This document shows, piece after piece, positions 10,796 through 40,500 of a stretch of DNA of 64,000 nt. Origin of the DNA: Botryllus schlosseri (Eukaryota). The notes below the pieces were generated by a model. It saw nothing but the letters and a program-made list of their open reading frames with translations, did no database searches and was not told the origin of the DNA. The position numbers and the translations under genes were made by a program. The stretch is taken from contig CM119385.1 of the NCBI GenBank assembly GCA_051294905.1, positions 11,036,001-11,100,000 of the forward strand. The letters are read 5' to 3'. Position 1 is the first letter of the stretch; the number at the start of each line of letters is the position of its first letter.

Positions 10796-12174
10796 GAGAG
10801 GTGGTCAAAGTAGTCAATAAAGCTACTCAAGTAGAAGTAGAAGTAACGACGAAAAAATCTACCCAAGTATGAGTAGAAGTACTTCTTCCATGAGCGACTT
10901 CAAACTACTTGAAGTAGAAGTAGAATTGACTGACTTTAATTCTACTAATACGGAGAAGTTGTATCGGATACGGTGTAAACACTTTACGCGATTAGTAAAC
11001 GTTAATAAAAAATATGCTGGATCGTAAAAATGCCATATTGTGTAGCTTTATTTCCGGAAATTAAAGGCATTACTGTACACTTATTGCTTGCATCCTTCAA
11101 TATGTATGTTCTCCAGACAAAATAACTGATACTCTATAATTAGAACTCAAAGTATGATACTGGGTAATTGAATGTAAAATATAAATACTACTTCTAGGGG
11201 AGATAGTGTAGTGGTTACGATAAGCGCCCACCAAGCAGACGGATCGGGCTCGATTCCTGTCGGAAGTTTATCTGGGCTCCTCTTCCCCTGCCGCTTCCGT
11301 TCTTACGGCGACAAAAAAGCCCAGAAAAAGGCCCGACGAAGAAAGCATTCACAAGGAATGGAAAGAACTATAGTAGAAAGGGCCGCGGCTTCAAAAAAAG
11401 ATCAACATCGAAAAGAACTGTGACATCGGTGAGATCGAGGTGGATGTTACAGTAAAGGATCGCTACTGATGCGTGTCGTTCGACATCCTCCTATCTGTTC
11501 ATGATATCGCATTGTGTCTTTATCGCATTGTGCATTGTGTGTGACTTCTTCAGATGAAAAATATAACCCAGCGATGTTATGTTCTAAAAGCGGAAAATGT
11601 AATTCATGTCTTTAGTCCAGGTGGTATGCTAAAACAGGTCTAAAGCTAAAAAAAAAGTCAGAGTCCGCTTTTCCAGATTAGGACACGCTATGGACTGCTA
11701 GATTACGATATGATAAGTAAATGCTAGATTGCGAAACATCAGTTTAAACGTGATGGGCCATATAAACTGTGATGAACTATTTCATATGGGCGACAATGCA
11801 GTGTGAACGGAACCACGCAACCCGCTACCTAAATTATATTCACCGTTACTTAAGTGAAATCATATAGGTCACTCCATATCCACTATTCGCGAAGCGCGAC
11901 GAAACTTCTGGGCTTTACTCAACTTTTATGAAAATTAACTGATGATACTCCGTGAAAACAGCCCCGAAATTTCTCAGGCTATCTTCCTGATTTGAGGATT
12001 AGACTACTTCTACTTGACAAACTGAAAATAGCGAAAAGTACGTAAGTAGATCACAAAATATTACGAAGTAGAAGTAGCAGGAAGTTACATCTACTTAATT
12101 AAGTACCAAAGTAGCGGAAAACTACTTGAGTAATTCAGAAAAGTAGAAGTACTTCGTTATACTGACCACCTCTG
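10796..12174 (-). mobile_element. hAT MITE family 'CAGAGGTGGTCA' (AGTAGA-rich subterminal repeats), containing a SINE insertion
   Basis: Termini (g)AGAGGTGGTCAAAG ... ACTGACCACCTCTG; same family as 22808-42091, 12870-14007 and 44505-46311; interrupted at ~11197-11552. Confidence 0.8.
11197..11552 (+). mobile_element. tRNA-derived SINE
   Basis: Head GGGGAGATAGTGTAGTGG (A box) ... GGCTCGATTCC (B box); body shared with 22608-22807 + 42092-42182; 3' ATCGCATTGT tandem tail. Confidence 0.7.
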
Positions 12175-12869
12175 CATTCCTGTGACACGCATTAGTTTGG
12201 AAGAAGTCCGTGCAAGCAGTTTAAACGTGTAGTCTTATCTACCTTTTATTTGGCAGCGGGAACTCTGGTATAGATGCGGGTGTGATCAGACTAGTTGACC
12301 CTCAAGGTCGTATTTATCATTCCTATCTGATACCGAATACTGCGCATGCAGGCTACATGTGCATTTTGCAATTGTGTATGTATGTTTACTGTACCATGAT
12401 CATTGCCGTCCGTTTGTTATGTATTTTGGTTGGATGAAAACAATGACTCTCTCTCTACCGGTTTGCGCGTGACACAAAATTATTTGGTATAAATCAACAA
12501 TAAAAATTTCCGCGCCTAACGCGATTTGCTGGGACCTGCGGTTTCTTTTCATTTGTGGAATCCCATCCAATGTTTCCTCTAATTTTTCACGAGTCGGCGC
12601 CCACTCACCAATCTCACTGCGCGGTCCCTTGGACAGCAGTGCGTAACGACTAAAAAAAGGTCATCACTTCGGATTTTTTGTGCGCAGCTTAGATTTTCTG
12701 TACGCAGAGACCGTGTCACCACTGCGCAATTTCGCACGTGCGCAGCTTAGAGGGAACGTCGACCTCATCCCTCAAAGAAATGTATATAAAGAAAACGAAT
12801 ACGCATAGCGCACAGAAATGAGACATCCTAGTATCCTAGCGGGGGAGATAACGCAGCAGTGACGATAAT

Positions 12870-14007
12870 AATCCCCCAATACAAAAGATAGCCTGAGGAA
12901 TTTCGGGGCTGTTTTCATGGAGTACCAACATTTAATATTCATAAAAGTCAAGTAAAGCCCAGAAATTTTTTTGCGCTTCGCCCACGGTAGTTAGTTATGG
13001 AGTGACAAATATGTTTTCACCAAAGTATCAGTGAATATAATTTAAGTACCGGATCGCTTGGTGCCGCTCTCACCGTATTGTCGCCCATATCAAATATTTC
13101 ATCACAGTAAATATGGCCCACTATAATGTCTGAAACTACACCGTTTCGTAATCTAGCAATTACCTATCATTTCGTAACCTATCAGCCCATGACGTGCCTT
13201 CTAATCTGGAAAATCCGACTTTTTTTTAACGTTACACCTGTTTTAGCAGATCACCTATGAAGCTTTATGGACAAAAGACATGAAATATATTTTCCGCTTT
13301 TTAGAAGCGGTATTTGTATTTTACTTTCAATTCCGAGTATCATACTTTGAGTTCTAATTATTATTATATTATTATTATTCTAATTATGTTCTGCAGTTAT
13401 TTTGACTGCAGAACATACATGCTGAAGCATAAAAACAAGCGTATTATTTTCCGAAAATGGAGCTACACTAAATATACACTAAATACACTAAATACACACT
13501 AAATATAACTTTTACGATCCACAATATTTGTTATTAAGGTATACTAATCGGGCAAAATGTTGAAACCGTATCCGATACAACTTCTCCGTATTGCTCTTCG
13601 CCTAAACTTGGGGCATTATAATATGAGGTAGGGCGCCATGCCATGATATTCTCAAAAAAGGGTTCTTCTAGTAAACAAAGGGTTAGTATCGCATTTTCAT
13701 ATCAATACTATAATGTGCATCCCATGATGCGAAAGAATGCATATTCTGTCGAAAATTGATACTACCTGGTATGCATCAATACGAATCAAGCTCTCTGCAC
13801 CTTCCGCATAGCTCAATTTGCAGATTTTGGCAGTCCATGCGAACGAATTAAGACTGTTTTCAAAACTACTTCCTTACTTGAGTAGATTTAAAGTCACTCA
13901 ATCCTACTTCTACTGCAAGTAGTTTTAGGTGGCTTATGGAAAAAGTACTTCTACTCGTACTTGAGTAGATTTTTTCGTCGCTACTTTTACTTCTACTTGA
14001 GTAGCTT
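12870..14007 (+). mobile_element. End-truncated copy of the CAGAGGTGGTCA hAT MITE, with an uninterrupted Maverick target site
   Basis: Near 13610 it reads GGGGCATTATAATATGAGG, matching the joined Maverick flanks GGGGCCTTA|TAATATGGGG. Flanked by a SINE head (12841) and SINE tail (~14008-14070). Confidence 0.8.
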
Positions 14008-21099: not shown

Positions 21100-23714
21100 C
21101 CTGTCAGACAAGATTTACATAAATTAATGTCATGTAAGCTACACGATCATCATCTGACATAAAATCTGCAGTTACCTTGGATGTAGCCTATGTATAATGT
21201 ATATAAACTACGCGCTGCTCTACACCGCTTCAAGACAACGCAGCTTGATGCATGAATTAATACATCATATAGCACTCGCCACCGTGACAGGAAATTGCCG
21301 TGTTGCGGACACGTGACTGCAAGCAGTCAGTTTTTACGTAGAGGTTACGCGTGTTACGTTATCCGAGTTGTCAACTGCCTAATTTGCCACTATACGTCGA
21401 TCGTTCGATGTACGATATCAAAAGACAGAACCGCCCGACCGATGAAACAAACCTCGGCCCGACGGACGAACACCGGGTCAGCGTCTGTATCATAAGCAAA
21501 CGGTGTATGGACGAGTGAACGTTCAATCAATTCTCCAAAGTTTTAGAATGAAAACTGTTAGTTCATCATATGAGCGTGACAGCCCCGCGGACAATCCTTT
21601 CCCATGCACGATTTACAGTCTAGGGTTACCATATTTATGATTCGGGAAAGAAGACCAAATCAGGAAAGTTAATCAAGACTGAAAACAGCCGATTTTGCTA
21701 TTTTTGCTCGAAAATTTGTGGGGTTGACTAAAAAAAGTCATCACGTTCGGTCTACTCCACTCTTTACCCACTTTTTAAATGTAGTGGTGGTGACTAAAAA
21801 ATGGTCGTCACTTTCAATGACTCCCGCCGAATGACCCGCTCGAACGTCCGTAGTAGCTATTTAGCGTCATTTAATCCGATTTTCAGCCGAATCAGTCCAT
21901 TATCCTAGCTGTAAAAGCTCTAAAGGAGGACGAAGTTTCAAAAAGGAGGACAATTAGGCGTCCTCAGAGGACATTTCCAAAAGCCTGAAAAATGAGGACA
22001 AATCCTCCTAAAGGAGGACGTATGGTAACCCTAAGCTATCTATCTGATGCTCCTATCATGATAGGCCTATATATTTGATCACCGGCTACTCGCGACTGCG
22101 TGTTCGAGGTGTCATTACAGTCGATCTTATACTAAACATTCCTCGCATCACATAGAGCACCTCGAGGTGGTCAAATACGCAGTTCATACTTTCATTGCCC
22201 TGACCAGATTTTAATTTGTAGGCTACACTACACTAGCTTTCGATTAGGACAAGTTTCATTACATCTGAGCGCTCGGATCACCAGCAATGGAACTACTAGG
22301 TGGTTTTAGCTGGCTGCTGCTGGTTTTAGCAGGCTCAGCAGTAGATGTCCCTGCGTATTCAAGTGTGACGATTGGGCTGAGCAATGAGCATTAAGCAATG
22401 AGCATCTATCACAGGGGTTGGTAAACTATACGGCCCGCGGGCCGCATGCGGCCTGCAACACCGTTTTGTGCAGCTCGTGAATGCCTCAAGAAGCGTTGTA
22501 AAAATATCGATAAAATCTGTACTAAAAGTCAAATTACTGTAGCTAATTGAATAAATTTTTCTTAATAATTTCAACCTGATATAAGTTCTACCATATAGGC
22601 GGCCCCGGTTCGTTTCCCGTCGGAGGTTTATCGGGCTCCTCTTCCCCCTCCGTTGCCGTTCTCAAGGCGACAAAAAAGTCCAGAAATTGACCGGACGAAA
22701 GAAAGCACTCACAAGGAATGGAAAGAGCTAGAAAGGGCCGATAGGCTTTAAAAATATCAACATCGAAAAAGACCTGTGACGGCGGGCACTCTAGGCCGAG
22801 GTGGGTGCAGAGGTGGTCAGTAACGAAGTAGGCCTACTTCTACTTTTTCGAATTACTCAAGTAGTTTTCCTCTACTTCTGGTACTTACTCAAGTAGGTCT
22901 TCTTTTCGCTACTTCTACTTCTACTTCGTAATATATTTTAAACTACTTACTTACTTTACGCTATTTTCAGTTTGTCAAATAGAAGTAGTTTAATCCCCCA
23001 ATAAGAAAGATAGCCTAAGGACTTTCGGGGCTGTTTCACGTAGTACCAATATTCAATTTTCATAAAAGTCATGTAATACCTAGAATTTTCGTTTCGCTTC
23101 GAGCACAGTAAATATGGAGTGACAAATATGTTTTAACGAAAGTATCGCTGAAAATAATTTAGATACCGCGGGTGGCGTGGTTCCGTTCACACCGCATTGT
23201 CGGCTATATCAAATATTTCATCACAGTAAGTATGACCCCCCATAACGTTTGAAACTACCGTTTCACAATCTAGCACTTGCCTATTATACCTAGCAGCCCA
23301 TGACGTGTCCTAATCTGGAAAAGTGGACTTTGACTTTTTTACCGTTAGACCTGTTTTAGCAGACCACCGTTAAAACTTTTTGGACAAAAGACATGAAATA
23401 TATTTTCCGCTTTTTAGAAATAGTATTCGTATTTTTATTTCAATTACGAGTATTATAGGTTGAGTTCTGATTATAGTTTCAGTTCATTTGTCTGAAGAAC
23501 ATACATGTTGAAGTATAAAAGCAAGAATAGTAATGCCTTATATTTTCGGAAAATAAAGCTATACACCCTATAGCATTTTTACGATCTGCCATATATTAAA
23601 TTACCGTACACTAATCGCGCAAAGTGTTCAAACTGTATCCGACACAACTTCTCCGTATTGCTCTTCGAATGAACTAGGGGCCTTAAGTAGTATTATACAC
23701 GGTAACGAGGCGCG

Positions 23715-23995
23715 CCCCAATCAGCGTCGAGTATTTGATCACGTGACATCTGTTAGCCAATCAGAATGCAGAACGAAGTGGGTGTGGTTCCAATACGAGA
23801 GAGGTTTTGGTTGTGTGAGAGATGGCATAGTTCCAGTCCAGTAACGCTGAGATATTTATTACGTCATTGCGTAAGTTGATTACCTATAATTGCGTATTGC
23901 AGCATGTGTATAATGATTACGTCATTATACGTCATTGCGTAAGTTGATTACCTATGATTGCGTATTGCACCATATTCATGATTACGTCACAAGCG
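23715..23995 (+). promoter_or_regulatory. TIR promoter: CCAAT boxes, CACGTG E-box, clustered TTACGTCA (ATF/CRE-type) sites in a ~65-bp duplicated unit
   Basis: CCAATCAG twice, ATCACGTGAC near 23739; TTACGTCA at 23859, 23917 and 23982, ATACGTCA at 23927; directly upstream of the Bcl-2 ORF. Confidence 0.6.
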
Positions 23996-24025
23996 TAGTT
24001 GATGCTCACTGTTATCTTCAAAACC

Positions 24026-24520
24026 ATGGAATTATTGCGAGTATCACCTGCGCTCACTGAAGAAAAGGATGAAATTATATCCACGGCATATTCCTTAGCT
24101 AGAAATTTTATCATGTATGAAATCGACGGCTCAAGCGTTAAAGCAAATACACAGGTGGAGAAAACCTTACGACGAGTTGTTACTGAAATATTTGAGCGAT
24201 ATCGAACTATCCTAAACGCAGTCTCCAAGCGCCTTCGTTATAGTGAAGTCAATGAGAAATATAAAGAACATTCACCCATTGAGCGAATGTTCCTGATGAT
24301 AGCCGATGAAATATTCAAAGATAGTCAAGAAAATTGGGGTCGGATTGTGTCTCTTTATGTGCTTGGCGGCATTCTTGCTCGCAATAACGAGGCTGCGCAT
24401 AACGGCAGGGATATAGATGCTATCATACAGACACTCGGGAATTACATTGCTACTAAAAAACGAAAGTGGATAGAACAAAATGGTGGATGGAGGCATTTTG
24501 TCACGTGGTATCACTTATAA
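24026..24520 (+). CDS. Bcl-2 family protein (viral Bcl-2-like), left TIR copy, 164 aa from the AAACCATGG start
   Basis: BH1 EIFKDSQENWGRIVSLYVLGG, BH2 WIEQNGGWRHF, BH3-like TLRRVVTEIFE; no C-terminal TM anchor; intronless. Confidence 0.9.
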   Translation: MELLRVSPALTEEKDEIISTAYSLARNFIMYEIDGSSVKANTQVEKTLRRVVTEIFERYRTILNAVSKRLRYSEVNEKYKEHSPIERMFLMIADEIFKDSQENWGRIVSLYVLGGILARNNEAAHNGRDIDAIIQTLGNYIATKKRKWIEQNGGWRHFVTWYHL

Positions 24521-24619
24521 AAGCTCGATCGCAGTTACTATTTGTTATATTTACATCATGGGTTCCGTGCGAATAAACGGTTGTAAGTTTATTGGATCCA
24601 AGGCCGTATCATGGATAGT

Positions 24620-24814
24620 GTGAAGTAGTTGTCTACCCAGAGCTTTTGCTCCTTTGGAAATCAAGGGTACCACACTACGTCCCAAACTGCGAAATAGATT
24701 ACCTAGACCGTGACCTCTTTGCACTCGACCTCGAAAGTAGTTTATGTCCCCTCCGCTTTGATTTCGATAATAGTGTTGAAAAGCTTCACGATCACAACAG
24801 TAATGTGCTCTCAT
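24620..24814 (-). pseudogene. 3'-truncated copy of the cement/pX-like gene running into the TIR
   Basis: Identical to the 36686 ORF up to LGRQLLHT, then reads antisense TIR sequence. Confidence 0.8.
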
Positions 24815-25541
24815 CGTGACGTAAAGCAAGTGTGATATGAACTACAGAACCATTCAGATTTATAGATGCACCTTTATCGTCTCTAATACTAATTCGAATT
24901 CGATTGGCATATTCCGCAATCATAGGGAAAAAGTAGATTTTCTCAAAAATGTGATGTTGGTATTCATTGTTAGCTGCTGTGATAGGGATATTTCGCAATA
25001 GCGGTGCATTCGTATCACCAACTGTTTGTGGTCGAATGAGATCGGTATAGACCAATAAATTACTTATCGGTGCGATGCTATCTCGCAGGAACATTTGCGA
25101 AGTTAAATATTTTCCTTGCGGTAAATTTTGTTCTTTAAGATTTCCATATACGAAAACCGGATTTCTGATTCTCTTTGGATTTCTTCGGAAATTCGGAAAG
25201 GCACCTGCTTCGCTAGGGGGAATGACTAGCATAGCCGTGGAGCTTGACAGCTGATTTATCCATACCTTTGTCTGAGTACGATTGATTCTATCGATCAAGC
25301 TTTTGAAATCATAATAATCCCCATTTGGATAGAAAAAATAATTATTGCTTTGCGCTGCCAACAGAGCAGATGATTTTTCCTCTTGAAATTCCCATAACAA
25401 TCCATTGAAATGGGGTAAAGTAGCTTGAAACTGATTACGAACTGAAAATTCTGCAAGCCCCAACTCCCATTTTCCAGTGATGGGACGCGCCAAGTCAAGT
25501 ACAAAATCCGATTTCGAACTGCTAATGTGAATGTATTTCAT
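24792..25541 (-). CDS. Minor capsid (penton-like) protein 2, intact copy, 249 aa
   Basis: N-terminal KWELGLAEF and C-terminal LLVYTDLIRPQTVGDTNAPLLRNI...IRISIRDDKG...VHITLALR match the Maverick minor-capsid pattern; full-length ORF. Confidence 0.85.
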   Translation of the reverse strand: MKYIHISSSKSDFVLDLARPITGKWELGLAEFSVRNQFQATLPHFNGLLWEFQEEKSSALLAAQSNNYFFYPNGDYYDFKSLIDRINRTQTKVWINQLSSSTAMLVIPPSEAGAFPNFRRNPKRIRNPVFVYGNLKEQNLPQGKYLTSQMFLRDSIAPISNLLVYTDLIRPQTVGDTNAPLLRNIPITAANNEYQHHIFEKIYFFPMIAEYANRIRISIRDDKGASINLNGSVVHITLALRHDESTLLL

Positions 25542-26159
25542 AACGCAATAGCACGCTTTCGAAATTGCAGTACAGCACTAGACGGTGCACTCCGAAAAGG
25601 AATTTTTTCACCCTTATCATTCAACAAAGATATTTTTATACGTTCCAATCTATTTATATTTATAGGGAAAAAGAAAGGCTTTATGTAGTATTTGGAAAAC
25701 GCCTTCTTATCTCCCTCGACTTTCACCACTCGCAATAGGCGCTGTAATGTACCATTGGATTCTTGCGGTTCAATAATATCGCAATGAACGTATACAAAGT
25801 CAATCGACGGTAAGGGTGTTATATCGAAATTGAAATGTATTTTTTTCTTTGAGAAAGAATATGCGGATAGCGCTGCTGTATTTGGTAACACGAAAGTCGC
25901 GAGAGTGTAGGCATCTGGAATTTCTATATTCTTCAACGTTGCTGTATAATCGTTCTCTGCAGTCACGATATTGCATTGCGTATCCACTCCTGGATAAAAG
26001 ATATCTGTGATGTCTTCGTGTGGAATTGACACAGTTAGGGTATTGCTCTCAGGAAAACATTTTACTGCTACATCGGGGTTGATACTTTCTATGGTTTTTA
26101 ACATGGCGTAGAGCGAGTCATATTGTCCAATTTTCAGGCGGAATCGTCTAAAGCTTTGT
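25538..26159 (-). pseudogene. 5'-truncated copy of penton-1
   Basis: Matches the 35158-35979 protein from QSFRRFRLK onward; lacks the first ~66 codons. The upstream 'N-terminus' in the ORF track is an alternative frame of ORF182. Confidence 0.8.
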
Positions 26160-26696
26160 CTGAGAATTGTTTGGCATCCATTTTTGATTGCCGTATTGCG
26201 TATTGCTATTTGGAAAGGTACCATTAGCATTGCCAGCATTCCGGAATCTTGCATTGGTATTCGACATGCCACCATTCCCAGCAAAGTTGCCATAACCATT
26301 TGGAAATCCCGCTTTTGCGCGATCCATAGGTTGTATTTGACCATTCGGCGCAATGTAACGCGATGTTTCTTGTAAAATCCACCCCAGCGGTGAATTTTCT
26401 ACGTCATCAACGACGTTCGACGGAGAATATAATATATATTCATCAGCGAGATTGATTTGCTGAAAGTATTCGATACCTTCTCGAGTGTAACACGCAACGA
26501 GCTTCCCATCATGAGTTAAACTTGCTTTGAATCTTTGTATTGCACCATTCGTTGGAAACACACGTACTTGTCGAGCATCGATCAGCTGATCGTCTGCAGT
26601 TTCGATTCGAAGCTTCGATATGTTATTGAAAATGTAAATGTCCTTCCGAAGAGCTCCTTCTGGGAGTTGCGACTCGGCTCTAATTGCTATAGACAT
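26148..26696 (-). CDS. Orphan Maverick protein (182 aa) with Gly/Asn-rich tail; C-terminus clipped by the duplication junction
   Basis: ATG-initiated ORF; its last codons ACA AAG CTT TAG lie inside the duplicated penton sequence. Confidence 0.65.
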   Translation of the reverse strand: MSIAIRAESQLPEGALRKDIYIFNNISKLRIETADDQLIDARQVRVFPTNGAIQRFKASLTHDGKLVACYTREGIEYFQQINLADEYILYSPSNVVDDVENSPLGWILQETSRYIAPNGQIQPMDRAKAGFPNGYGNFAGNGGMSNTNARFRNAGNANGTFPNSNTQYGNQKWMPNNSQTKL

Positions 26697-26806
26697 GATT
26701 CGATCTAAACAATGTCTCTTGAATAGAACTGAAATTATGGAGTAGCTACTGTGGTTTTTATAGACCTCGGCGTGTTCTTTTCTCTGATTTTTTTTTTTTT
26801 AAACTT

Positions 26807-27050
26807 AAATTTAAAATGATTGAATATCTCACACGTTGCGTCGCTGTTTTGCAACTGTCACAGATTCAAATTCAACGCAGCAGCTGTTATTTTTCAAATT
26901 TAAAATGATTATCTCGAACGTTGCGCAACTGTTTCACAACTGCCGCAGATTCAAATTCAACGCCGCAGCTGTTGTTTTTAAATTTAATATATCTCGGACG
27001 TTGCGCAACTGTCACTGGCACAGTTTCAAATTCATAGCCGCAGCTAGTTT
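26807..27050 (+). repeat. Three tandem ~85-bp units in the Maverick intergenic region
   Basis: Units start at 26807, 26896 and 26980 (AAATTTAA...ATCTC..ACGTTGCG...CAGATTCAAATTCAACGC.GCAGCTGTT). Confidence 0.85.
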
Positions 27051-27190
27051 GATAGGTGCATGCGTGTTATTGTGATCGCATACTAGGTGAGGGACCCACG
27101 TGAACACTTATTCATTGGAACTTAAACGCCTTAACCACTCAGCCAACTCAGTATATATTCACGATGTTTAGCCTCAGCTATGCGACCACT

Positions 27191-27398
27191 ATTTAGAGAT
27201 AGCAGTCATTTGCGTTTTTGATATTATAGAGTATTACGATCGAATCGCTACGAGTAACGCACTGTCTAACTCATTGGGGAATTGATTTTTCAACGCGATA
27301 TTTAGAGCTAGCAATGCTAAGTTCCACTAAGTCCGAACAGCTGCGTTTTGTTATTGTTGAGTATCGCGCAGTTGTCAATAGGGAATAGATTTTCAATG
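27191..27398 (+). repeat. Two degenerate ~109-bp tandem units
   Basis: ATTTAGAG.TAGCA...TGCGTTTT...GAGTAT...GGGAAT.GATTTT at 27191 and 27300. Confidence 0.6.
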
Positions 27399-27453
27399 GT
27401 TTAGATACGCTCAGTAGATACGCCGTTTAGACTTTAGTTATTGAGTATTGAGA

Positions 27454-27594
27454 ATGAATACTGAACAAGCCGTAAATGACGAGATGGAACAAGTCGCAGT
27501 AGATAACGAAAGTAGTACGACTCAAGTTGACGTGATTGACATCACCGGCGATGATTGCAGTAAAGCTAAATCAACCAGCGAAGATTTTGAATAA
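27454..27594 (+). CDS. 46-aa acidic micropeptide with a SUMO-interacting motif
   Basis: MNTEQAVNDEMEQVAVDNESSTTQVDVIDITGDDCSKAKSTSEDFE*; below the ORF-track cut-off. Confidence 0.55.
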   Translation: MNTEQAVNDEMEQVAVDNESSTTQVDVIDITGDDCSKAKSTSEDFE

Positions 27595-27622
27595 CAATCC
27601 TTAACTTTTTGTTATAATTCAA

Positions 27623-27860
27623 CGATTGCGTATTGCAGCATGTATAGTATTGATTACTTCATATGCATAGTTGATTACTTTAGTTATTACGAGAGCGTCA
27701 TTGCTTAGTTACAGTACCGCTGAGATATGATTGCGTCCAGTCCAATAACACCGAGAAATACGTTATTACGATTGTGTAGTTGAAGCATGTTCATGATTAC
27801 GTCATATGCGTAGTTGATTACTTTAGTAACGCTGAGATATGATTACTGCGTTGATTGCCT
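27623..27860 (+). promoter_or_regulatory. Internal copy of TIR promoter modules upstream of ORF217/pPolB
   Basis: Shares GATTGCGTATTGCAGCATGT, AGTAACGCTGAGATAT, AGTTGATTAC and CATGATTACGTCA blocks with 23840-23995. Confidence 0.65.
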
Positions 27861-27917
27861 TTGCAGTTGAAGCAAGTGCAAGGCAATATATAACGTGTAA
27901 TATTTAGTACATGACAT

Positions 27918-28571
27918 ATGTTTTTGAGTAGTGATATAGCAAGCTATGTATTGAGTACTTTTGAAAAGTTAAATGCCGACAAATCTATTTGCATGTTTCC
28001 GAATTGTGCTATTGTTTTCATTAATAATGCTGCTCTCCTAGAGACTATTATGACACGTACAGCTGTGAACTGTGATTATGGCTTGATTAAGCCTGCCTCT
28101 TTCTGGATGTTTTGTAAAAATGGCTCTGAGATCATTAATTCAATCTTTTATTGTTTGCAGCTCAGTATGGATAACTTTATTGACATAAGTGACTTGTTAG
28201 ATATGAACGCACCTCATCAAAGTGTAACGATGCAGGCTCCGAGAAAAGACATGAACAAGATATATCAGAGTCAAAATGAAAGCCGAAAGCGCTCGCGTCA
28301 AGACACTATGTCTTTGATCGAAGGTCTAGTTGACGACGATTTGAAGATGGAAGCTATGTGGAATCGACTTGTTTCGATGGAAGTATTTGACCAAGACTAC
28401 TCGAAAAATTTTCTAAACATAATTAAAAACACCATGAAAGACATTGAAAAACTATCTAGTGACTCGAATGCTTGCATTGTTGAGATTCAGCGTCTTGAAA
28501 AAATTAAGTTTGTGTTTCTATACGGTGTGATTAAATGTAAACTGCGCTTGAAATATGGATTCAATTTCTAA
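27918..28571 (+). CDS. Orphan Maverick protein, 217 aa
   Basis: ATG ORF overlapping the pPolB start; basic patch SRKRSR and helical C-terminal part; no family recognised. Confidence 0.7.
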   Translation: MFLSSDIASYVLSTFEKLNADKSICMFPNCAIVFINNAALLETIMTRTAVNCDYGLIKPASFWMFCKNGSEIINSIFYCLQLSMDNFIDISDLLDMNAPHQSVTMQAPRKDMNKIYQSQNESRKRSRQDTMSLIEGLVDDDLKMEAMWNRLVSMEVFDQDYSKNFLNIIKNTMKDIEKLSSDSNACIVEIQRLEKIKFVFLYGVIKCKLRLKYGFNF

Positions 28572-31500
28572 TATATGTACTGACTATTGTCTTGGTATTT
28601 TTCAGATACTAGTATCTATGGCGCGACGCAGGCGATATGGAGATCGTGGATTTCTGGTCGACGAAACGCTGGGTTTCGAACAAGACGGCATAGAGGTGAT
28701 TGAAAGACACTACGATTCCATCATCGATTCGACATGGACTTCAAGAAACAACTTACGAGAAATCATCAACATTCGAATGGTCGGAAGAGGTCCGCTCGAA
28801 ATTCACGCGCGTATTGCAGACATTTACCCCAGAAGATATCGTCAGTTCAAGATGAATTTCGCGTATGGGTACTTATTATTCAACCGTGACACATCCAGAT
28901 ATAGTTATTATCATCCTCAGAGTTCTCAAGCGGTTTTTACTGTCCCTAAAACTATCATATCACGCGAAGATTTCGATTCCGTCACGAATGAGATCGATTT
29001 GACGGCAGGTTTTGAATATGCCAATCGAGTGCGACCAGATACGAAATTCTACTGTGCTGATGTGTTGCATATTTCCATTTACATTTATGAGATGGATAGA
29101 GCTTTACTTGGTGGAAGTACTATCATTTCCCCGGAGATGCAAGCATTAAGCAAATGTAACTATATCATGACTTTCCTGCGTAACCAAAAAGGCAAAGCAT
29201 ATGAGGATTCTTTGTGTATTTTCCGCTGCGTTTCATATAGCATGAAAAAAAAGCGTAATGAAACACATGTTCGGCAATTGGCCGCGCAATTCACAGCCCG
29301 TTACGATATCTCGACTGAGAACGGAGTAGCTTTTGAAGACTTATCAAAAGTTGAGGATTGTTTTCAAGTTCAAATACTGCTTTATGAAAAACGTAATCAA
29401 GGCACAGTCATGCTGCGTAATTCTCATGCTAATGGAATGACTATACCTATTCACATGCAAGATCATCACTGTTGCCTGATTAGGGACCTGACATTGTACA
29501 CGTCTACCTATATGTGTGACAAGTGTAAATTTTTCTTTACTAGAAAAGATAATTTGATAGAGCATATGAAAAGCATTGATTGTGAGCGTCCTCAAAAACA
29601 GCGACACGGTTTCGGTATTTATCGCCCTAAGATGACTGTGTTTGAGCGAATGGCCGAACAAGGAATTTTGGTTAGCTCTGAAAAACGATATTACCCCTTC
29701 CGAATCGCTTATGATTTCGAGAGTTTACTAGAAAAAGAAAATCTTCGAGCTGACACACCGAAAGTTGAAATTGTCAACAAGCATGTTGCGGTATCGGTAT
29801 CTCTCTCAGATAATGTTACGAATGAAACGCATACACTCATTTCCAACGGTGATCCCAACGTTTTAATCAACGATATGGTGGCAAAACTATATGAAATTCA
29901 AAACGTCGCATCTTCGCATATGCGGCAGTTATTTGAAGAAGAATTGAAAGATTTTCGCATGTTAATAGAGCATCGCAATGCAATTGAACCAGGCAAAACT
30001 CGCTATTTAGATCGCTTGTATCGTCACTTCGAAATTTGGTTGGATCAAATACCTGTGATTGGATTCAACTCGGCTCGTTACGACTTGAATCTTTGTAAAA
30101 AATATTTGATTCCTATACTGCAAGAAGAAAGTGGATTTTTTGTTTTGAAACGAAACAGCGCATATCTGACCATCAGTACCAACCGATTGAAATTCCTTGA
30201 TATTTCACTGTTTCTGTCACCGGGTTATAGTTTGGACGCGTACTTGAAAATTTATGGAAATGGGGTGGACAAAAAATTCTATTTTCCATACGAGTACATG
30301 ACTTGTATTGATAAATTGAATGACACGCAATTACCTCCACACGAGATGTTCTATAGCAGTCATCGAGGCACTAATATCACCGCGGCGCAATACCAAGAAT
30401 GCGTAGATATGTGGAATCGTCTGCAAATGAAAACCATGCGAGACTTTCTAACTTTTTATAACGAAAGTGACGTGATTGGCTTTCTGGTTGCGTTAGGTAA
30501 TAACGCTGCCTTTTATCAAAAGTTGGGTATTGACATGTTCAAATCTGCTATCAGTTTACCAAGCATAGCCAATCGACTCATGTTTGCAGAATGTTATGAC
30601 ATCGCGCTGTTCAGTAAAGCGAATGCTGATCTCCATCAAACTGTAGTGAGCAATCTATTCGGTGGTCTGTCACAAATATCGACACGATTTGCAATGAAAG
30701 ACGAAACGAAAATTCGTGAAATACAGTACGGCGACGCAGCGAAATACGTGAAAAAGATAATCGGATATGACGCAAATTCGCTCTACCTCGCATCCATCGA
30801 TCAATGCATGCCGTGTGGATTTCCAATCAGGTGGTTGTATGACGAAACCAAACAAAAATTTCACAGAAAGCCAATTTACCCTGCGATGGCAGAACTCGAA
30901 TGGCTTACTTATGAAAGTTATCAGCGCGATATTTCAATTCAACACGCCTGGAACGGCAAGCAAGCTAAACTTGGCTCGCGTCAAATTTCGGTTGATGGCT
31001 TTTCGCTTGAATATCAATTGATATTCCAATATCATGGATGTTTTTTTCATTGTTGTGATCGGTGCTATAAGGACGACGCAAACATTGAGCGACGTATTAA
31101 AACAGAAGAAATCACTGCCTATCTCGAAGAGTTGGGATACACGATAATATCAATACGCGAATGTGAATGGAATCGCATGAAACTCAACCCTGACATTGCG
31201 CAGTTTGTTTCGTCACTACAAAGAAATGTAACAAAAGAATATTATCTCACTGCGAATCAACTATTAGATCGCGTATTTCATCAACAGTTCTTTGGGGCAT
31301 TGGAAGTCGATGCGTACTGCCCCGATGAATTAAAAGCAAAATATGCAGAATTTCCGCCATTTTGTAAACATATCTCGGTGGATTTATGCGATGTCGGCGA
31401 ACATATGCGCGAATATGCCCGTCAAAACAATGTGAAATTTCCAAAGAAGTTTTTGGGCTCTAGTTATTTCACTGAGAAACAACTAATTACAAGTGATTTG

Positions 31501-32484
31501 TTGGGTTGGTACATGGATCACGGTATGATTATTACACGCATATATCAAGCCGTGGAATACGAAGCCAAACGACCATTTCAAAAGTTTGTAAATTCTGTCG
31601 TAACGCAAAGGCGAAAGGGTGATGTAACCCCTAAAGACCCAGCACGTGAAATGGAGGCCTTGACCTTCAAATTATGTGGAAATTCCGCGTTTGGGTCCAC
31701 TATACAGAACCCAATGAAGTACAGAAACCATACCTATGTAAAAGGTGATGAGTTGAAATCACACATTCAGAAAAAAAACTTTATTGACGCCGATGAACTT
31801 TCTGAAGATCTGATCGAGGTTAGCTCGTTACCAGATTCAATTGACGTCGATCAACCGATCATTGTAGGTCTATTCATCTTTAACTCCAGTAAATTACGCA
31901 TGCTTTCGTTTCTGTATGACTTTTTACATGAGTATTTAGAGGAATGCGACTTCAGTTATTTGGAGGGAGATACTGATAGCCAATATCTGAGTTTATCAGC
32001 TGATTCAATCTACTCCCTAATTAAACCTTCGCGAAGGAAAGAATTTTTTCAAGTTCATGATGAATGGCTCATACAGAGAGCTTGCGCGCTGCATCGAGCA
32101 GACTTTGAGCGTGATCCGATCGCTTTCAAAACCACCGAACCGTGCTGTGTCGCTGCTTACAATTATGCTAAACGAATTCCTGGTCTGTTCAAAGTAGAAT
32201 GGGAGGGTCATGGGTTTATTGGATTGAACTCGAAAACGTATTACTGCAAGGGTGAGACTGATAAATATTCATCCAAAGGTTTGAGTAAATCCGCCTCTAA
32301 GACCTTCAAGGATTTTGAAGGCGTGTTGCAAAACCGTTCCACTTGCGGCGGGATTAATTCTGGGTTTCGCTGTTTTAATGGTAATATTTTTACTTATAAG
32401 CAATATCGTTCTGCTTTGTCGTATGGTTACTATAAAAGAGTTGTTTTGCCGGATGGCATACATACTGTACCGCTTTCATTGTAA
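28555..32484 (+). CDS. Protein-primed family B DNA polymerase (pPolB), 1309 aa
   Basis: Exo I AYDFES, Exo II GFNSARYD, Exo III YNESDV; motif A GYDANSLY, motif B KLCGNSAFG, motif C GDTDS; Zn finger CDKC..H and a Vsr-like insertion VDG...QYHGCFFHC. Confidence 0.97.
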   Translation: MDSISNICTDYCLGIFQILVSMARRRRYGDRGFLVDETLGFEQDGIEVIERHYDSIIDSTWTSRNNLREIINIRMVGRGPLEIHARIADIYPRRYRQFKMNFAYGYLLFNRDTSRYSYYHPQSSQAVFTVPKTIISREDFDSVTNEIDLTAGFEYANRVRPDTKFYCADVLHISIYIYEMDRALLGGSTIISPEMQALSKCNYIMTFLRNQKGKAYEDSLCIFRCVSYSMKKKRNETHVRQLAAQFTARYDISTENGVAFEDLSKVEDCFQVQILLYEKRNQGTVMLRNSHANGMTIPIHMQDHHCCLIRDLTLYTSTYMCDKCKFFFTRKDNLIEHMKSIDCERPQKQRHGFGIYRPKMTVFERMAEQGILVSSEKRYYPFRIAYDFESLLEKENLRADTPKVEIVNKHVAVSVSLSDNVTNETHTLISNGDPNVLINDMVAKLYEIQNVASSHMRQLFEEELKDFRMLIEHRNAIEPGKTRYLDRLYRHFEIWLDQIPVIGFNSARYDLNLCKKYLIPILQEESGFFVLKRNSAYLTISTNRLKFLDISLFLSPGYSLDAYLKIYGNGVDKKFYFPYEYMTCIDKLNDTQLPPHEMFYSSHRGTNITAAQYQECVDMWNRLQMKTMRDFLTFYNESDVIGFLVALGNNAAFYQKLGIDMFKSAISLPSIANRLMFAECYDIALFSKANADLHQTVVSNLFGGLSQISTRFAMKDETKIREIQYGDAAKYVKKIIGYDANSLYLASIDQCMPCGFPIRWLYDETKQKFHRKPIYPAMAELEWLTYESYQRDISIQHAWNGKQAKLGSRQISVDGFSLEYQLIFQYHGCFFHCCDRCYKDDANIERRIKTEEITAYLEELGYTIISIRECEWNRMKLNPDIAQFVSSLQRNVTKEYYLTANQLLDRVFHQQFFGALEVDAYCPDELKAKYAEFPPFCKHISVDLCDVGEHMREYARQNNVKFPKKFLGSSYFTEKQLITSDLLGWYMDHGMIITRIYQAVEYEAKRPFQKFVNSVVTQRRKGDVTPKDPAREMEALTFKLCGNSAFGSTIQNPMKYRNHTYVKGDELKSHIQKKNFIDADELSEDLIEVSSLPDSIDVDQPIIVGLFIFNSSKLRMLSFLYDFLHEYLEECDFSYLEGDTDSQYLSLSADSIYSLIKPSRRKEFFQVHDEWLIQRACALHRADFERDPIAFKTTEPCCVAAYNYAKRIPGLFKVEWEGHGFIGLNSKTYYCKGETDKYSSKGLSKSASKTFKDFEGVLQNRSTCGGINSGFRCFNGNIFTYKQYRSALSYGYYKRVVLPDGIHTVPLSL

Positions 32485-32488
32485 TAAA

Positions 32489-33109
32489 ATGAACCGTGCA
32501 CGTGTTTTATACTCGCCTCTTCGTATGATAATTAGTGGAGCATCGTCCAGTGGAAAAACAGTTTTCGCCTATAGAATCATACAAAATGCCGACAAGCTCA
32601 TCGTACCTCGACCGAGAAAGATCATCTGGTTATATAATAACTATCAACCGTTGTATGATAAGATGAAAGGAGTGTCATTTTACAAGGGTCTAGACAAGTT
32701 GAAAGATTTACAGAGAGCTAATAGTGAACATACGTTAATTGTGCTAGATGACATGATGACGCAAGCAAGTCAAGTGCGTGAACTGTTCACCAGATATAGT
32801 CATCACATGTCGCTCTCAGTGGTGTTTCTCTGTCAAAATCTATTTCACCGTGGAGCAGGCTTCCGTGACATTACGCTGTCTAGCAACTATATTGTCATCA
32901 TGAAAAATCCTCGTGATTCCGCCCAGATTCGATATCTTTCACGTCAAATGTTTCCAGATAAACCAAATTTTCTCACGGAAGCCTACAAGAGAGCAACTCG
33001 TAAGCCTTATAGTTATATCATGGTTGATTTGACGCAGGAAACACCCGAACAGTATCGACTTCGCAGCAACATTTTTCCAAGCGAACGTATGACCGTGTAT
33101 TTGGAATAA
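32489..33109 (+). CDS. A32/FtsK-like DNA packaging ATPase, 206 aa (start MNRARV)
   Basis: Walker A GASSSGKT, Walker B LIVLDD, FLCQNLF motif. Confidence 0.93.
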   Translation: MNRARVLYSPLRMIISGASSSGKTVFAYRIIQNADKLIVPRPRKIIWLYNNYQPLYDKMKGVSFYKGLDKLKDLQRANSEHTLIVLDDMMTQASQVRELFTRYSHHMSLSVVFLCQNLFHRGAGFRDITLSSNYIVIMKNPRDSAQIRYLSRQMFPDKPNFLTEAYKRATRKPYSYIMVDLTQETPEQYRLRSNIFPSERMTVYLE

Positions 33110-33144
33110 ATAGCGCTGTACTCGAACATCCACTATCATTCGCA

Positions 33145-33549
33145 ATGGCGAGGTCACGCGGTGTTTTGAAAAAAACTTTAAATAATCATCTTATCAAGTT
33201 GAAGCTGCTAAAGAGTGCTAAAAAGAAGGAACGTAACGAGTTATTAACTCACAAAGCTTTTACTAGCTGTGTGTGTGAGTGTCTTCGTAACCTTGTCTCG
33301 GGCAATATAGCTATTTCAAGTACGAGTAAGGCACGATTGAAGAAGCATAAAACTAACATTCGCAAAGTGTTGTGCTGTAAATCTCAAAAACAGAAGCAAA
33401 AAACATTACAACAGGGTGGCTTTTTATCAGGTGAATATACATGCGATTCGATTCGATTCATGATCTAACTTTAATGATTGATAGCGATCTTAAGTGCTGC
33501 AATTCCGATTATTGGAAGTCTGTTGGGCGGATTGACTAGACATGCGTGA
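33145..33549 (+). CDS. Basic core protein (pVII/PW-like), spliced: exons 33145-33430 and 33485-33549, 116 aa
   Basis: CECLRNLVSGN and QQGG|F adenain-type site; removing the GT-AG intron restores the amphipathic end QQGGFLSAILSAAIPIIGSLLGGLTRHA. Confidence 0.8.
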
Positions 33550-34003
33550 ATTGTACTTCCCGTCTTTACAATCAAAAGACGCCTACGAAAAGAAATTCAA
33601 TGAACATATCGCAAGCATCAGGGACTCTGATTTGACACGCACCGAAAAATTAGCACTATTTCAACACGGCATTAGACTATTGAGAAATCTACGTGCAAAT
33701 AAGAAATTGATCAAGTCGTCGTCCCGCGCACCCGCAGCGCCCGCTACCGATGAAACAATTGCCGCGTCGCATCCGCCCGGAGCGGCGCCCGCTATTAATA
33801 ACACATTTGACGCGACACCTCCGCCCGCAACACCCGAGATTTGGAACAATTACGAAGCGGTAACTCCACCCCATACACCTAAAACTTCAAAGAAAAAAGT
33901 TAAAAAGAAGAAAGCCAATAAACCTCCAGTTAATTGGCAAAGCATTGACGGTCCGCGCAAACGAAAGCCGAATCAACGCTACACAGGAAAGTTATGGACA
34001 TGA
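33542..34003 (+). CDS. Maverick virion/core-type protein, Pro/Ala-rich middle and Lys-rich tail, 153 aa
   Basis: ATG overlaps the spliced upstream stop; helical IRDSDLTRTEKLALFQ segment is like the conserved small ORF found before Maverick integrases. Confidence 0.7.
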   Translation: MRELYFPSLQSKDAYEKKFNEHIASIRDSDLTRTEKLALFQHGIRLLRNLRANKKLIKSSSRAPAAPATDETIAASHPPGAAPAINNTFDATPPPATPEIWNNYEAVTPPHTPKTSKKKVKKKKANKPPVNWQSIDGPRKRKPNQRYTGKLWT

Positions 34004-35001
34004 CGCAAGACTATTTCGATCCCCGCAAACCAAACTCCTATAGAGGAGCTTATTTACAGAAAGACAAAGAATGGTTGAAATCAGAACAAAGTTATACCCT
34101 GCATTTTCCTATACGAAAAAAATTTACTCGCGAGAAGGTGGTAGTCTCTGGAATTGATAGTCAGTTTCAGAGCGATTTGATTGATGTGCAGTCTATTTCT
34201 AAATACAATCGTGGATTTAGATATCTGGCTTTGGTTATTGATACGTTTTCAAAGTTTGTGTGGTTGATTCCAATTAAAGATAAAACTGGTCGCAGTATGA
34301 TTTCTGCTTTCCGACAAGTGTTCAATGAGAGGCTGCCTTTAGTGTTGCAGACTGATAGAGGTACAGAATATACCAATCGAGCTTTTCAAAACTTTCTCAA
34401 GAAAAATAAAGTTCGTTACTTTTACACAAAAAGCGAATTGAAGTCGTCTCTCGCCGAGCGCTGTATTAGGACTTTCAAGGCAATCTTGTACCGCTATTTC
34501 ACAAAGAATAACACCAGTAAATACATCGACGTGCTACAGGATTTCGTATATTCCTATAATCACACCAAACATACGTCGTTAGGTATGGCTCCTAGTCAAG
34601 TCAATTCACACAATCAAGAAGCTATTTGGCAAAAAATGTACGGGTTTCGACAAGCTACACTTCCCACACTGACGAAAGGGACAGCCGTACGCATTTCGAA
34701 AATTCGCGGGCTTTTTGAAAAGAGCAGTAGACCCAATTGGACAACTGAGATATTTTATATCATCGACGCAATGGCTGGTGACCCTCCGATGTATCACCTG
34801 CGTGACTATAATCATGATGTCATCGATGGGAGGTTTTACAGAGAAGAACTACAGGTAGTGACCGAACCTACAGAGTGGCGTGTTGAAAAGATTATAAAGA
34901 GACGTCAACGCGGCAAACACCGTCAGTATTTAGTGAAATGGGTAGGATATGGATCAGAATTCAATTCCTGGGTCGATCAAAAAGATATCGTCAAACCGTA
35001 A
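33994..35001 (+). CDS. Retroviral-type (rve) DDE integrase with C-terminal chromodomain, 335 aa
   Basis: QSDLID, QTDRGTEY and AERCIRT catalytic motifs; chromodomain WRVEKII...YLVKWVGY...NSWV. Confidence 0.95.
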   Translation: MDMTQDYFDPRKPNSYRGAYLQKDKEWLKSEQSYTLHFPIRKKFTREKVVVSGIDSQFQSDLIDVQSISKYNRGFRYLALVIDTFSKFVWLIPIKDKTGRSMISAFRQVFNERLPLVLQTDRGTEYTNRAFQNFLKKNKVRYFYTKSELKSSLAERCIRTFKAILYRYFTKNNTSKYIDVLQDFVYSYNHTKHTSLGMAPSQVNSHNQEAIWQKMYGFRQATLPTLTKGTAVRISKIRGLFEKSSRPNWTTEIFYIIDAMAGDPPMYHLRDYNHDVIDGRFYREELQVVTEPTEWRVEKIIKRRQRGKHRQYLVKWVGYGSEFNSWVDQKDIVKP

Positions 35002-35161
35002 CTTTTATCAATTCATCGCTCAAGTCGTGGTTATATTGATCATAGTGATTTTTTCACTCTACAATTTAACAATCGTTCAAGAAAACAAGGAGCTTTGGGT
35101 ATCGTTATTATCGTCGTGTGTGGGTTATATGTTACCAGCTCCAAAAATACCTAAACTATGA
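34949..35161 (+). CDS. Small two-TM membrane protein
   Basis: FIAQVVVILIIVIFSLYNL and LWVSLLSSCVGYMLPAP; TATGA overlap with the penton-1 start; typical Maverick small hydrophobic ORF. Confidence 0.7.
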   Translation: MDQNSIPGSIKKISSNRNFYQFIAQVVVILIIVIFSLYNLTIVQENKELWVSLLSSCVGYMLPAPKIPKL

Positions 35162-35979
35162 GTTATGTGACGTTATTTTCCAATGCTTCTATGGACATGT
35201 TTCCTGGCAATACAACCGCAGAATATGTCAACGAAATGCAGACGGCTAGAAATGTAGAGAGAAATGAAGTCGCTCTGACGGAGATCAGTTTTCCAAGAGA
35301 TTTTGAAAAACGTATCGAGTCACAAGCTTCTTTCGGATTCCAAATTACGGGTATCGAACAAAGCTTTAGACGATTCCGGTTGAAAACAGGACAATATGAC
35401 TCGCTCTACGCCATGTTAAAAACCTTGGAAAGTATCAACCCTGATGTAGCAGTAAAATGTTTTCCTGAGAGCAATACCCTAACTGTGTCAATTCCACACG
35501 AAGACATCGCAGATATTTTATATCCAGGAGTGGATACGCAATGCAATATCGTGACTGCAGAGAACGATTATACAGCAACGTTGAAGAATATAGAAATTCC
35601 AGATGCCTATACTCTCGCGACTTTTGTGCTACCAAATACAGCAGCGCTATCCGCATATTCTTTCTCAAAGAAAAAAATACATTTCAATTTCGATATAACA
35701 CCCTTACCGTCGATTGACTTTGTATACGTTCATTGCGATATTATTGAACCGCAAGAATCCAATGGTACATTACAGCGCCTATTGCGAGTGGTGAAAGTCG
35801 AGGGAGATAAGAAGGCGTTTTCCAAATACTACATAAAGCCTTTCTTTTTCCCTGTAAATATAAATAGATTGGAGCGTATAAAAATATCTTTGTTGAATGA
35901 TAAGGCTGAAAAAATTCCTTTTCGGAGTGCACCGTCTAGTGCTGTATTGCAATTTCGAAAGCGTGCTATTGCGTTATGA
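35158..35979 (+). CDS. Minor capsid protein (penton) 1, 273 aa
   Basis: N-terminal YVTLFSNASMDMFPGNT and C-terminal VYVHCDIIEPQ...LLRVV...IKISLLNDK...VLQFRK match the Maverick penton pattern. Confidence 0.9.
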   Translation: MSYVTLFSNASMDMFPGNTTAEYVNEMQTARNVERNEVALTEISFPRDFEKRIESQASFGFQITGIEQSFRRFRLKTGQYDSLYAMLKTLESINPDVAVKCFPESNTLTVSIPHEDIADILYPGVDTQCNIVTAENDYTATLKNIEIPDAYTLATFVLPNTAALSAYSFSKKKIHFNFDITPLPSIDFVYVHCDIIEPQESNGTLQRLLRVVKVEGDKKAFSKYYIKPFFFPVNINRLERIKISLLNDKAEKIPFRSAPSSAVLQFRKRAIAL

Positions 35980-36708
35980 AATACATTCACATTAGCAGTT
36001 CGGAATCGGATTTTGTACTTGACTTGGCACGTCCCATCACCGGAAAATGGGAGTTGGGGCTTGCAGAATTTTCAGTTCGTAATCAGTTTCAAGCAACTTT
36101 ACCTCATTTCAATGGATTGTTATGGGAATTTCAAGAGGAAAAATCATCTGCTCTGTTGGCAGCGCAAAGCAATAATTATTTTTTCTATCCAAATGGGGAT
36201 TATTATGATTTCAAAAGCTTGATCGATAGAATCAATCGTAGTCAGACAAAGGTATGGATAAATCAGTTGTCAAGCTCCACGGCTATGCTAGTCATACCCC
36301 CTAGCGAAGCAGGTGCCTTTCCGAATTTCCGAAGAAATCCAAAGAGAATCAGAAACCCGGTTTTCGTATATGGGAATCTTAAACAACAACATTTACCGCA
36401 AGGAAAATATTTAACTTCGCAAATGTTCCTGCGAGATGGCATCGAGCCTATTAGTAATTTATTGGTCTATACCGATCTCATTCGACCGCAAACAGTCGGC
36501 GATACGAATGCACCGCTATTGCGAAATATCCCTATCACAGCAACATCACATTTTTGAGAAAATCTACTTTTTCCCTATGATTGCGGAATATGCCAATCGA
36601 ATTCGAATTAGTATTAGAGACGATAAAGGAGAATCTATAAATCTGAATGGTTCTGTAGTTCATATCACACTTGCTTTACGTCACGATGAGAGCACATTAC
36701 TGTTGTGA
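35976..36708 (+). pseudogene. Penton-like protein 2, frameshifted by a 17-bp deletion at 36542/36543
   Basis: ORF stops at 36557; the C-terminus continues in another frame to 36708. The inverted copy keeps GCTAACAATGAATACCA (24958-24974). Confidence 0.88.
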
Positions 36709-37054
36709 TCGTGAAGCTTTTCAACACTATTATCGAAATCAAAGCGGAGGGGACATAAACTACTTTCGAGGTCGAGTGCAAAGAGGTCACGGTCTAGGTA
36801 ATCTATTTCGCAGTTTGGGACGTAGTGTGGTACCCTTGATTTCCAAAGGAGCAAAAGCTCTGGGTAGACAACTACTTCACACCGGGGCTGAAGTCGCTTC
36901 TGACGTATTGGGAGGACAAAACATTGGAGAAAGCTTTAAAATCAGAGGAAAGCAAGCTGCTAGTCAAGCACTTGATAATTTCCTAGGGAAGAGAAAAGCA
37001 CCTAAAAAGAAAAATACCAAACGGAAAAAACGTCGCCGGGATATTTTTGATTAA
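36686..37054 (+). CDS. Cement/pX-pVI-like virion protein (start MRAHYCC)
   Basis: QSGG and QRGHGLG Gly motifs, amphipathic GLGNLFRSLGRSVVPLISKG helix, basic tail; lies just before hexon. Confidence 0.8.
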   Translation: MRAHYCCDREAFQHYYRNQSGGDINYFRGRVQRGHGLGNLFRSLGRSVVPLISKGAKALGRQLLHTGAEVASDVLGGQNIGESFKIRGKQAASQALDNFLGKRKAPKKKNTKRKKRRRDIFD

Positions 37055-37104
37055 ATACAAATAGCAAGCCTTCCTCTTTTCATTTACAAGTAGACCCGCG
37101 GAAC

Positions 37105-38382: not shown

Positions 38383-38831
38383 ACGGACTAGAAATAGATG
38401 AAATATTGTATAGTTACGATTCCACCAAACGACATTATCTAGGAAATTTTCCTATTGATCGACTTCCTCGGCGACCGAAAGCTCCCTACTCATTAATCAT
38501 TAATTATGACGAGGCCGACGAACCAGGAAGTCACTGGGTATGCATCTACGCTGATGAATATGGAACTCATTATCATGACAGCTTCGGCATAACTCCGTTC
38601 AGAAACGAAATACCCTGTTTCTTAGAACCTGAAAAGTATACAAGTTCGATCAAACCATTACAGCACAAACGTTCAGAGGCTTGCGGAGCGCACGCAATTT
38701 CATTCCTAAGCTGCCGCAGTGATGGTATGAGCACGCTGTCTTATTTAGACCACTTCGGAAAAGATAAGAAACACAACGATAGTATAGTCTGGGACTTTGT
38801 TCAAAGATTGAAACGAAATGCGAGCAAATAG
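38379..38831 (+). CDS. Adenain-like cysteine maturation protease (start MNGLEI), 150 aa
   Basis: Catalytic H (GSHW), D (YHDSFG), Q (LQH) and C (SEACG); ATATGA overlap with the hexon stop. Confidence 0.93.
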   Translation: MNGLEIDEILYSYDSTKRHYLGNFPIDRLPRRPKAPYSLIINYDEADEPGSHWVCIYADEYGTHYHDSFGITPFRNEIPCFLEPEKYTSSIKPLQHKRSEACGAHAISFLSCRSDGMSTLSYLDHFGKDKKHNDSIVWDFVQRLKRNASK

Positions 38832-39566: not shown

Positions 39567-39617
39567 ATCACTGACTCGTGTTCGGTTGTGTTTATCCATT
39601 AGGTAGTAGCAAAATGC

Positions 39618-40336: not shown

Positions 40337-40405
40337 TCTGAGTGACAATCAAATTGAAATGATTGCGCCACCTTTGCGTCATTAGCACTTCAACGGAAAA
40401 AAGAG

Positions 40406-40477: not shown

Positions 40478-40500
40478 AAGCGATAGTGACGGCTTAAATG

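Follow-up and report, generated by a model that had tools for sequence, protein, structure and literature searches.

A Bcl-2 homologue without a membrane anchor lies in both terminal inverted repeats of a recently inserted Maverick/Polinton in Botryllus schlosseri

In the window analysed here, a 64,000-nucleotide stretch of the Botryllus schlosseri genome (contig CM119385.1), we identified a Maverick/Polinton of 17,987 bp (23686-41672) that carries a Bcl-2 homologue entirely within both of its terminal inverted repeats (TIRs). The two complete copies, at 24002-24520 (+) and 40838-41356 (-), face inward, as a preliminary description of this DNA had reported. The reading we prefer, with a probability of roughly 0.55, is that the BH-domain part of a host gene was captured without its anchor and would now supply an early, soluble viral Bcl-2, the second copy having come through replacement of the element's left end and the TIRs having been kept identical since. 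What is new here is the combination of two known features, a Bcl-2 accessory gene and a gene-bearing Polinton TIR.

The element fits the definition in the available text of PMC8097293, which characterizes Maverick/Polintons by TIRs with (AGT)2 termini and a 6-bp target-site duplication. Its termini read AGTAGT...ACTACT, and the hexamer GCCTTA is found on both flanks (23680-23685 and 41673-41678, both +). The left TIR (23686-24619, +, beginning AGTAGT) and the right TIR (40739-41672, -, with the second Bcl-2 copy) are identical over 934 of 934 nt, with no mismatch, and their length falls inside the 46-1,447 bp that the same text gives for vertebrate Mavericks. The insertion landed inside one copy of a host repeat whose ends are rich in AAGTAGAAGTAG, represented in the window at 10797-14007, 22633-23685, 41673-42092, and 44504-46312. 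Because the flanks are continuous in two uninterrupted copies of this repeat (13401-13811 and 44725-45115), which serve as an empty-site comparison, the ends of the element are true insertion boundaries; real ends and a pair of TIRs free of mismatches mean, in turn, that the insertion is recent. Elsewhere in the window, short ATTAGCTT-type units form inverted arrays at 58600-59430 and 61070-62200 that resemble a foldback element or a satellite.

The interior of the element agrees with its ends. A 1309-aa ORF (28555-32484, +) contains the Exo I, A, B, and C motifs in the order expected of a Maverick/Polinton PolB, as judged with the motif patterns generally known for this polymerase; it matches no polymerase profile in Pfam, and PDB sequence searches with this pPolB and with the probable major capsid protein returned chance matches only. 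As in other members of the group, an A32-like packaging ATPase (32378-33109, +; Pfam E 1.1e-9) occurs together with an rve integrase bearing a chromodomain (33994-35001, +; Pfam). The probable major capsid protein, 425 aa (37105-38382, +), is assigned by position and size, with a DJR-like Pfam match at E 0.14, and a probable adenain-like protease (38379-38831, +) by its HWV and HDSFG motifs and a Gln/Cys-Gly motif recognized by eye. Two further ORFs of 249 and 273 aa are paralogues (E 5e-7 to each other). ORF249 looks penton-like in a low-confidence model (pLDDT 44, penton matches at a TM of about 0.3), and the intact ORF273 (35158-35979, +) is probably a second penton-like gene. A word-indexed search with ORF249 or with the Bcl-2 ORF gave no matches, and a PHROGs search gave nothing useful. 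An accessory cluster on the reverse strand (39618-40477) consists of an intact ubiquitin-conjugating E2 (39866-40336; Pfam E 1.9e-48) flanked by tRNA-Pro(TGG) (39618-39689) and tRNA-Ala(TGC) (40405-40477). Beside it, a 125-codon frame without a Pfam match (40501-40878, -) starts inside the right TIR and extends into unique sequence.

By its sequence and its predicted structure, the protein encoded in the TIRs is a member of the Bcl-2 family. It matches the Pfam Bcl-2 profile (PF00452) over its whole length (1-100) with E 1.1e-20 and a score of 74.5 bits, the cut-off being 31.4, and a PDB sequence search is led by Mcl-1 (top match, E 1.2e-10), BCL2L10, Bcl-2, and A1. An AlphaFold2 model built from a 79-sequence Bcl-2 alignment is all-helical (pLDDT 91.7), with the helical bundle of the family, and superimposes on zebrafish NRZ with Z 19.7 and rmsd 2.6 over 147 aligned residues. 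NRZ, Trichoplax Bcl-2L2, Bcl-xL, BOK, and Mcl-1 are tied in the fold search, which does not separate pro-survival members (Z 18.6-19.7) from BOK (Z 18.7). The BH1 motif NWGR and the BH2 motif W..GGW are both intact. In these respects, the preliminary description has been borne out, as it has in stating that the C-terminal anchor is missing: hydropathy over 17 residues peaks at 0.88, and with three anchor-bearing relatives as tblastn queries no remnant of an anchor tail is found in any frame. An anchor concealed by a frameshift or stop was rejected on the latter ground. The protein differs here from cellular Bcl-2 proteins, and membership in PF00452 does not require an anchor. Read from its first ATG, the ORF yields 172 aa; translation probably begins at the second ATG, at 24026, giving 164 aa, as suggested by its context (accATGG) and by the closest relative, P0002, which begins at the same position.

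The origin of the gene points, on the evidence of one named sequence, toward tunicates. The closest named relative is the bcl-2-like protein 2 of Styela clava (P0001; 47-49% identity), and identity to the Styela group as a whole is 47-53%. In a 53-row tree of 17 named references, 35 top hits, and the query, with lower hits and Bax/Bak/Bok left out, the query belongs to a group of 10 rows that holds the Styela protein with support 100/99. The group unites the query with Styela bcl-2-like protein 2 and invertebrate Mcl-1/A1-like proteins, although the Styela cellular protein, unlike the query, has a longer N-terminus, a G-D at the BH3 site, and a 39-residue tail with an anchor. Viral-library rows are far more distant, the closest at under 21% identity, and the Bcl2 of a Branchiostoma lancelet adintovirus (UniProt A0A5H3CWZ2) shares 12% with the query against the 47-53% of the Styela group, which marks the gene as a separate capture.

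The C-terminus of the protein suggests how the capture may have occurred. BH2 is matched in 73 of the 78 best hits (no match in five), and V directly follows GW in 55 of these 73, a residue expected at this point if a gene caller had read into an intron; 15 of the remaining 18 bear a hydrophobic tail. In cellular genes, splicing to the anchor exon appears to take place at this site, and the element protein stops 9 residues beyond it, an ending that would follow if the BH-domain exon had been captured by itself. Retro-capture from a spliced mRNA was tried and rejected, since the 9-residue tail scored -3.4, under all 17 spliced tails (leave-one-out range -0.4 to 15.2); random 7-mers score as high as the element tail in 17% of cases, and the failed spliced-tail test fits exon capture without proving it. 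Two non-overlapping fragments, P0002 and P0154, share 77% and 69% identity with the query, and each lies on a 4016-nt contig. In P0154 the GGW is followed by V, so the pair may represent exons of the donor gene in the host, or else parts of a broken sibling.

Each Bcl-2 copy comes with its own flanking signals. The 170 nt upstream of the ORF form a promoter-like module (23832-24003, +) with three TTACGTCA repeats, 77-89% similar to a segment ahead of ORF217 and pPolB (27624-27840, +). The two loci have 30 10-mers in common, whereas windows elsewhere share no more than 4, and the homology ends at the Bcl-2 ATG. An AATAAA at 24572 (+), a putative poly(A) signal, lies inside the TIR 52 nt past the Bcl-2 stop, with the TIR ending about 40 nt beyond it; the same hexamer is found at the ends of pPolB, the ATPase, and one accessory ORF. 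Because the upstream module and the AATAAA both sit within the TIR, both Bcl-2 copies are complete units, and their sequence suggests that they are probably regulated in common with the replication genes. The ORF was said earlier to follow a TIR promoter and to be expressed early: an upstream module does precede it, its promoter role is putative, and early expression gains indirect support from the likeness to the module before ORF217 and pPolB. The AATAAA at 24572 is paired head-to-head with one at 24588 on the opposite strand (24572-24593, and 40765-40786 at the inner end of the other TIR), an arrangement that could terminate Bcl-2 and opposing transcripts alike. We do not adopt the idea that 27624-27840 is a former left TIR, given that the inner part alone matches, that the terminal 140 nt does not, and that ORF182 lies to its left. 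Just before this internal module, an acidic 46-codon ORF (27454-27594, +) contains the stretch VDVIDI, which we take to resemble a SUMO-interacting motif, and an approximately 85-nt tandem repeat (26807-27045) lies upstream of ORF182.

The inner edge of the left TIR is itself a rearrangement junction. The TIR runs through a GT (24618-24619; junction 1), common to its inner end and to the adjoining sequence, into an inverted copy of right-arm positions 35358-36882. Over its first 250 nt this duplicate (24618-26159, -) is identical to its source; beyond them, 39 substitutions and a short indel set the two apart. Inverted right-arm sequence makes up the whole of the element's first 2,474 bp, and 3,856 bp of that arm are passed over. 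The junctions cut three genes. A truncated copy (24551-24814, -) of the basic 122-aa ORF (ORF122; 36686-37054) breaks off at junction 1, the ORF273 duplicate retains its 3' part without its own 5' end (25538-26159, -), and ORF182 (26148-26696, -; function unassigned) has lost its native 3' end at junction 2 (26159) and takes its stop codon from the duplicated segment. The left arm also holds the sole unbroken copy of ORF249 in the element (24792-25541, -), penton/minor-capsid-like on weak fold evidence; the frame of the right copy (35976-36708, +) reads as broken near 36540 into pieces of 193 and 90 aa. One unbroken copy each of ORF249 and ORF273 is thus left after the duplication, on opposite arms (24792-26159 and 35158-36708). 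A further candidate, a gene interrupted at the TIR edge and lying downstream of it, was set aside as evidence, since the Met 9 nt inside the edge opens only 27 codons on the right arm.

The duplicate records more than one event. Identity over the 250 nt adjoining the TIR has a chance of about 0.001 at the mean rate, whereas the 39 sites of the diverged part comprise 25.5 synonymous and 13.5 non-synonymous changes (pooled pN/pS 0.15, p 2e-8), with a synonymous divergence of about 7%. The low pN/pS indicates that the genes of the diverged part were functional as they changed, whether in a sibling or within an older, longer TIR; found beside the 250-nt identity, it calls for either sibling recombination or such an older long TIR. 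Replacement of the left end followed by TIR homogenisation is the simplest reading of the sequence, yet the junction fixes only the present inner edge of the TIR, and an older TIR of at least 934 bp that already held Bcl-2 fits equally. In virophages, TIRs are regenerated after truncation, according to the available text of PMC8547959. Because the inner edge of the TIR coincides with a gene-truncating duplication, the second Bcl-2 copy came, or stayed, with the end rearrangement. The earlier suggestion that dosage was doubled by design is weakened by this coincidence: the simplest account, and a probable one, is that diploidy came about as a side effect when the end was replaced, and selection for dose is possible.

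We propose the following course of events. A Maverick lineage of the adintovirus type would have taken up part of a tunicate Mcl-1/A1-like gene, the stretch coding for the BH domains but not the anchor, and set it downstream of a module that also serves the element's polymerase unit. A soluble viral Bcl-2 would be made early during replication of the element, and its BH1/BH2 groove would hold the BH3 helices of host pro-death proteins, delaying cell death; judged from sequence and model, the protein most likely acts in this way. The second copy would have arisen, or its boundary been fixed, when inverted right-arm DNA replaced the left end, the 3,856 bp of inverted copy being skipped or deleted at the 2-nt microhomology. 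Terminal pairing during protein-primed replication, the established model for TIR identity, would then hold both TIRs identical.

The order of these events could be otherwise. Bcl-2 may be a stable, selected part of the TIR in this Maverick lineage and the left-arm rearrangement later and unrelated, a reading that we regard as possible and still clearly the lesser one. It would account for each TIR being a complete unit that ends about 40 nt past the AATAAA, with a breakpoint just beyond the unit that keeps both copies, and it has a parallel in poxvirus ITRs, which hold diploid genes in the available text of PMC12508240. It sits poorly with an inner edge that is the very junction cutting other genes, and with butterfly polintons, whose TIRs carry hexon and protease in the part seen of bioRxiv 10.1101/2025.02.07.637071 and therefore seem to take in whatever sits at the end. 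Somewhat more doubtful is a variant in which the first coding exon was captured, the TIR expanded as a dose device in the manner of poxvirus ITRs, and the rearranged left arm, holding the only unbroken copy of the penton-like gene, was for that reason locked in, so that diploidy became heritable in a spreading element.

A different concern is whether the protein does anything at all. The gene could be a passenger, a truncated fragment of a captured host gene with little or no activity that is identical in both arms through TIR homogenisation alone. The lost anchor, an end branch of 0.21 in the 53-row tree against 0.087 for the P0002 fragment, and the BH3 site, where the query has V-T and all six closest relatives that cover the site have G-D, would all suit such a fragment. 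The V-T could be decay; since V-x is common in more distant relatives (the site is matched in 55 of 78 top hits, where V-x occurs more often than any other state and V-T three times), we read it as neither clear damage nor clear adaptation. We nevertheless consider a passenger improbable: the 164-codon frame is open, none of the 10 near-invariant positions in the 79-sequence alignment has changed, GC3 is 0.37, like the 0.39-0.41 of the core genes, the gene has its own upstream module and AATAAA, and Bcl2 recurs in other adintoviruses.

Less probable still is a role apart from apoptosis control, or a dominant-negative or pro-death one. The protein might, for example, bind Beclin-1 in autophagy or serve as an innate-signalling decoy, as some poxvirus Bcl-2 folds do; the element protein has no anchor, and its fold is common to BOK, BAX, and non-apoptotic poxvirus proteins. 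The sequence matches are led, however, by Mcl-1, BCL2L10, Bcl-2, and A1, the NWGR is intact, the query is without the G-D that BH3 ligands use, and the poxvirus decoys score Z <9 against 18-20 for cellular members. Least probable of all is an assembly chimera in the left arm, for although TIRs and multicopy elements induce assembly errors, and gene-splitting indels in virophages were refuted by Sanger sequencing (available text of PMC8547959), the target-site duplication matches, the empty site is continuous, and 39 mostly synonymous substitutions in the duplicate are not expected from fold-back reads.

Known systems share one or the other half of this arrangement. Adenovirus E1B-19K, herpesvirus BHRF1, and African swine fever virus (ASFV) A179L are viral anti-apoptotic Bcl-2s. 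In our fold comparison, ASFV A179L (Z 17.1), KSHV KsBcl-2 (14.6), EBV BHRF1 (12.9), and canarypox CNP058 (17.7) share the fold of the element protein, and sequence matches to E1B-19K are weak, none better than E 0.4; these five are of separate origin (14-21% identity), and their activity was shown by experiment, whereas here it is predicted. By analogy, the element protein likely does the same job. Adintoviruses carry Bcl2 and IAP homologues in the accessible text of Starrett et al. 2021 (PMC8502044), and three Bcl2 labels appear in the text of its Suppl. Fig. S2; as here, Bcl2 is an accessory gene of an element with pPolB and integrase, and unlike here, that text states no TIR location or duplication. 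In Pieris/Euchloe polintons (the bioRxiv text cited above), hexon and adenain lie in TIRs of approximately 2 kb, so that whole genes are doubled in each insertion as in Botryllus, where the doubled gene is instead a host-derived death regulator. Poxvirus ITRs that change in length (PMC12508240) and virophage TIRs that regenerate (PMC8547959) are further cases, in the portions available, in which end rearrangement alters the diploid gene set, although their replication systems differ from that of Mavericks and here a single integrated copy is concerned. With Bcl2 in adintoviruses, whole-gene polinton TIRs, and 934 bp within the range of vertebrate Mavericks, the premise that Maverick TIRs are usually non-coding makes the present case less surprising than was suggested. 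In the accessible parts of PMC6431247, PMC11296320, PMC10748475, and 10.64898/2026.07.28.741278, we found no further Maverick with a gene in its TIR, and the portion seen of a 2024 review of viral Bcl-2 proteins (PMC11209288) mentions neither polintons nor adintoviruses. A Bcl-2 gene inside a Polinton TIR was not reported in the literature searched, which comprised openly available texts without subscription papers, Repbase, or unseen supplements.

TIR diploidy in one copy should not be taken as adaptation. The junctions visible in this element show a route by which genes can enter Maverick TIRs, and the protein, being small and soluble, is directly assayable. An apparently early, host-derived death regulator, together with a ubiquitin E2 and two tRNAs in a recent insertion, points to active host manipulation and bears on the question of an infectious, viral way of life for Mavericks in animals.
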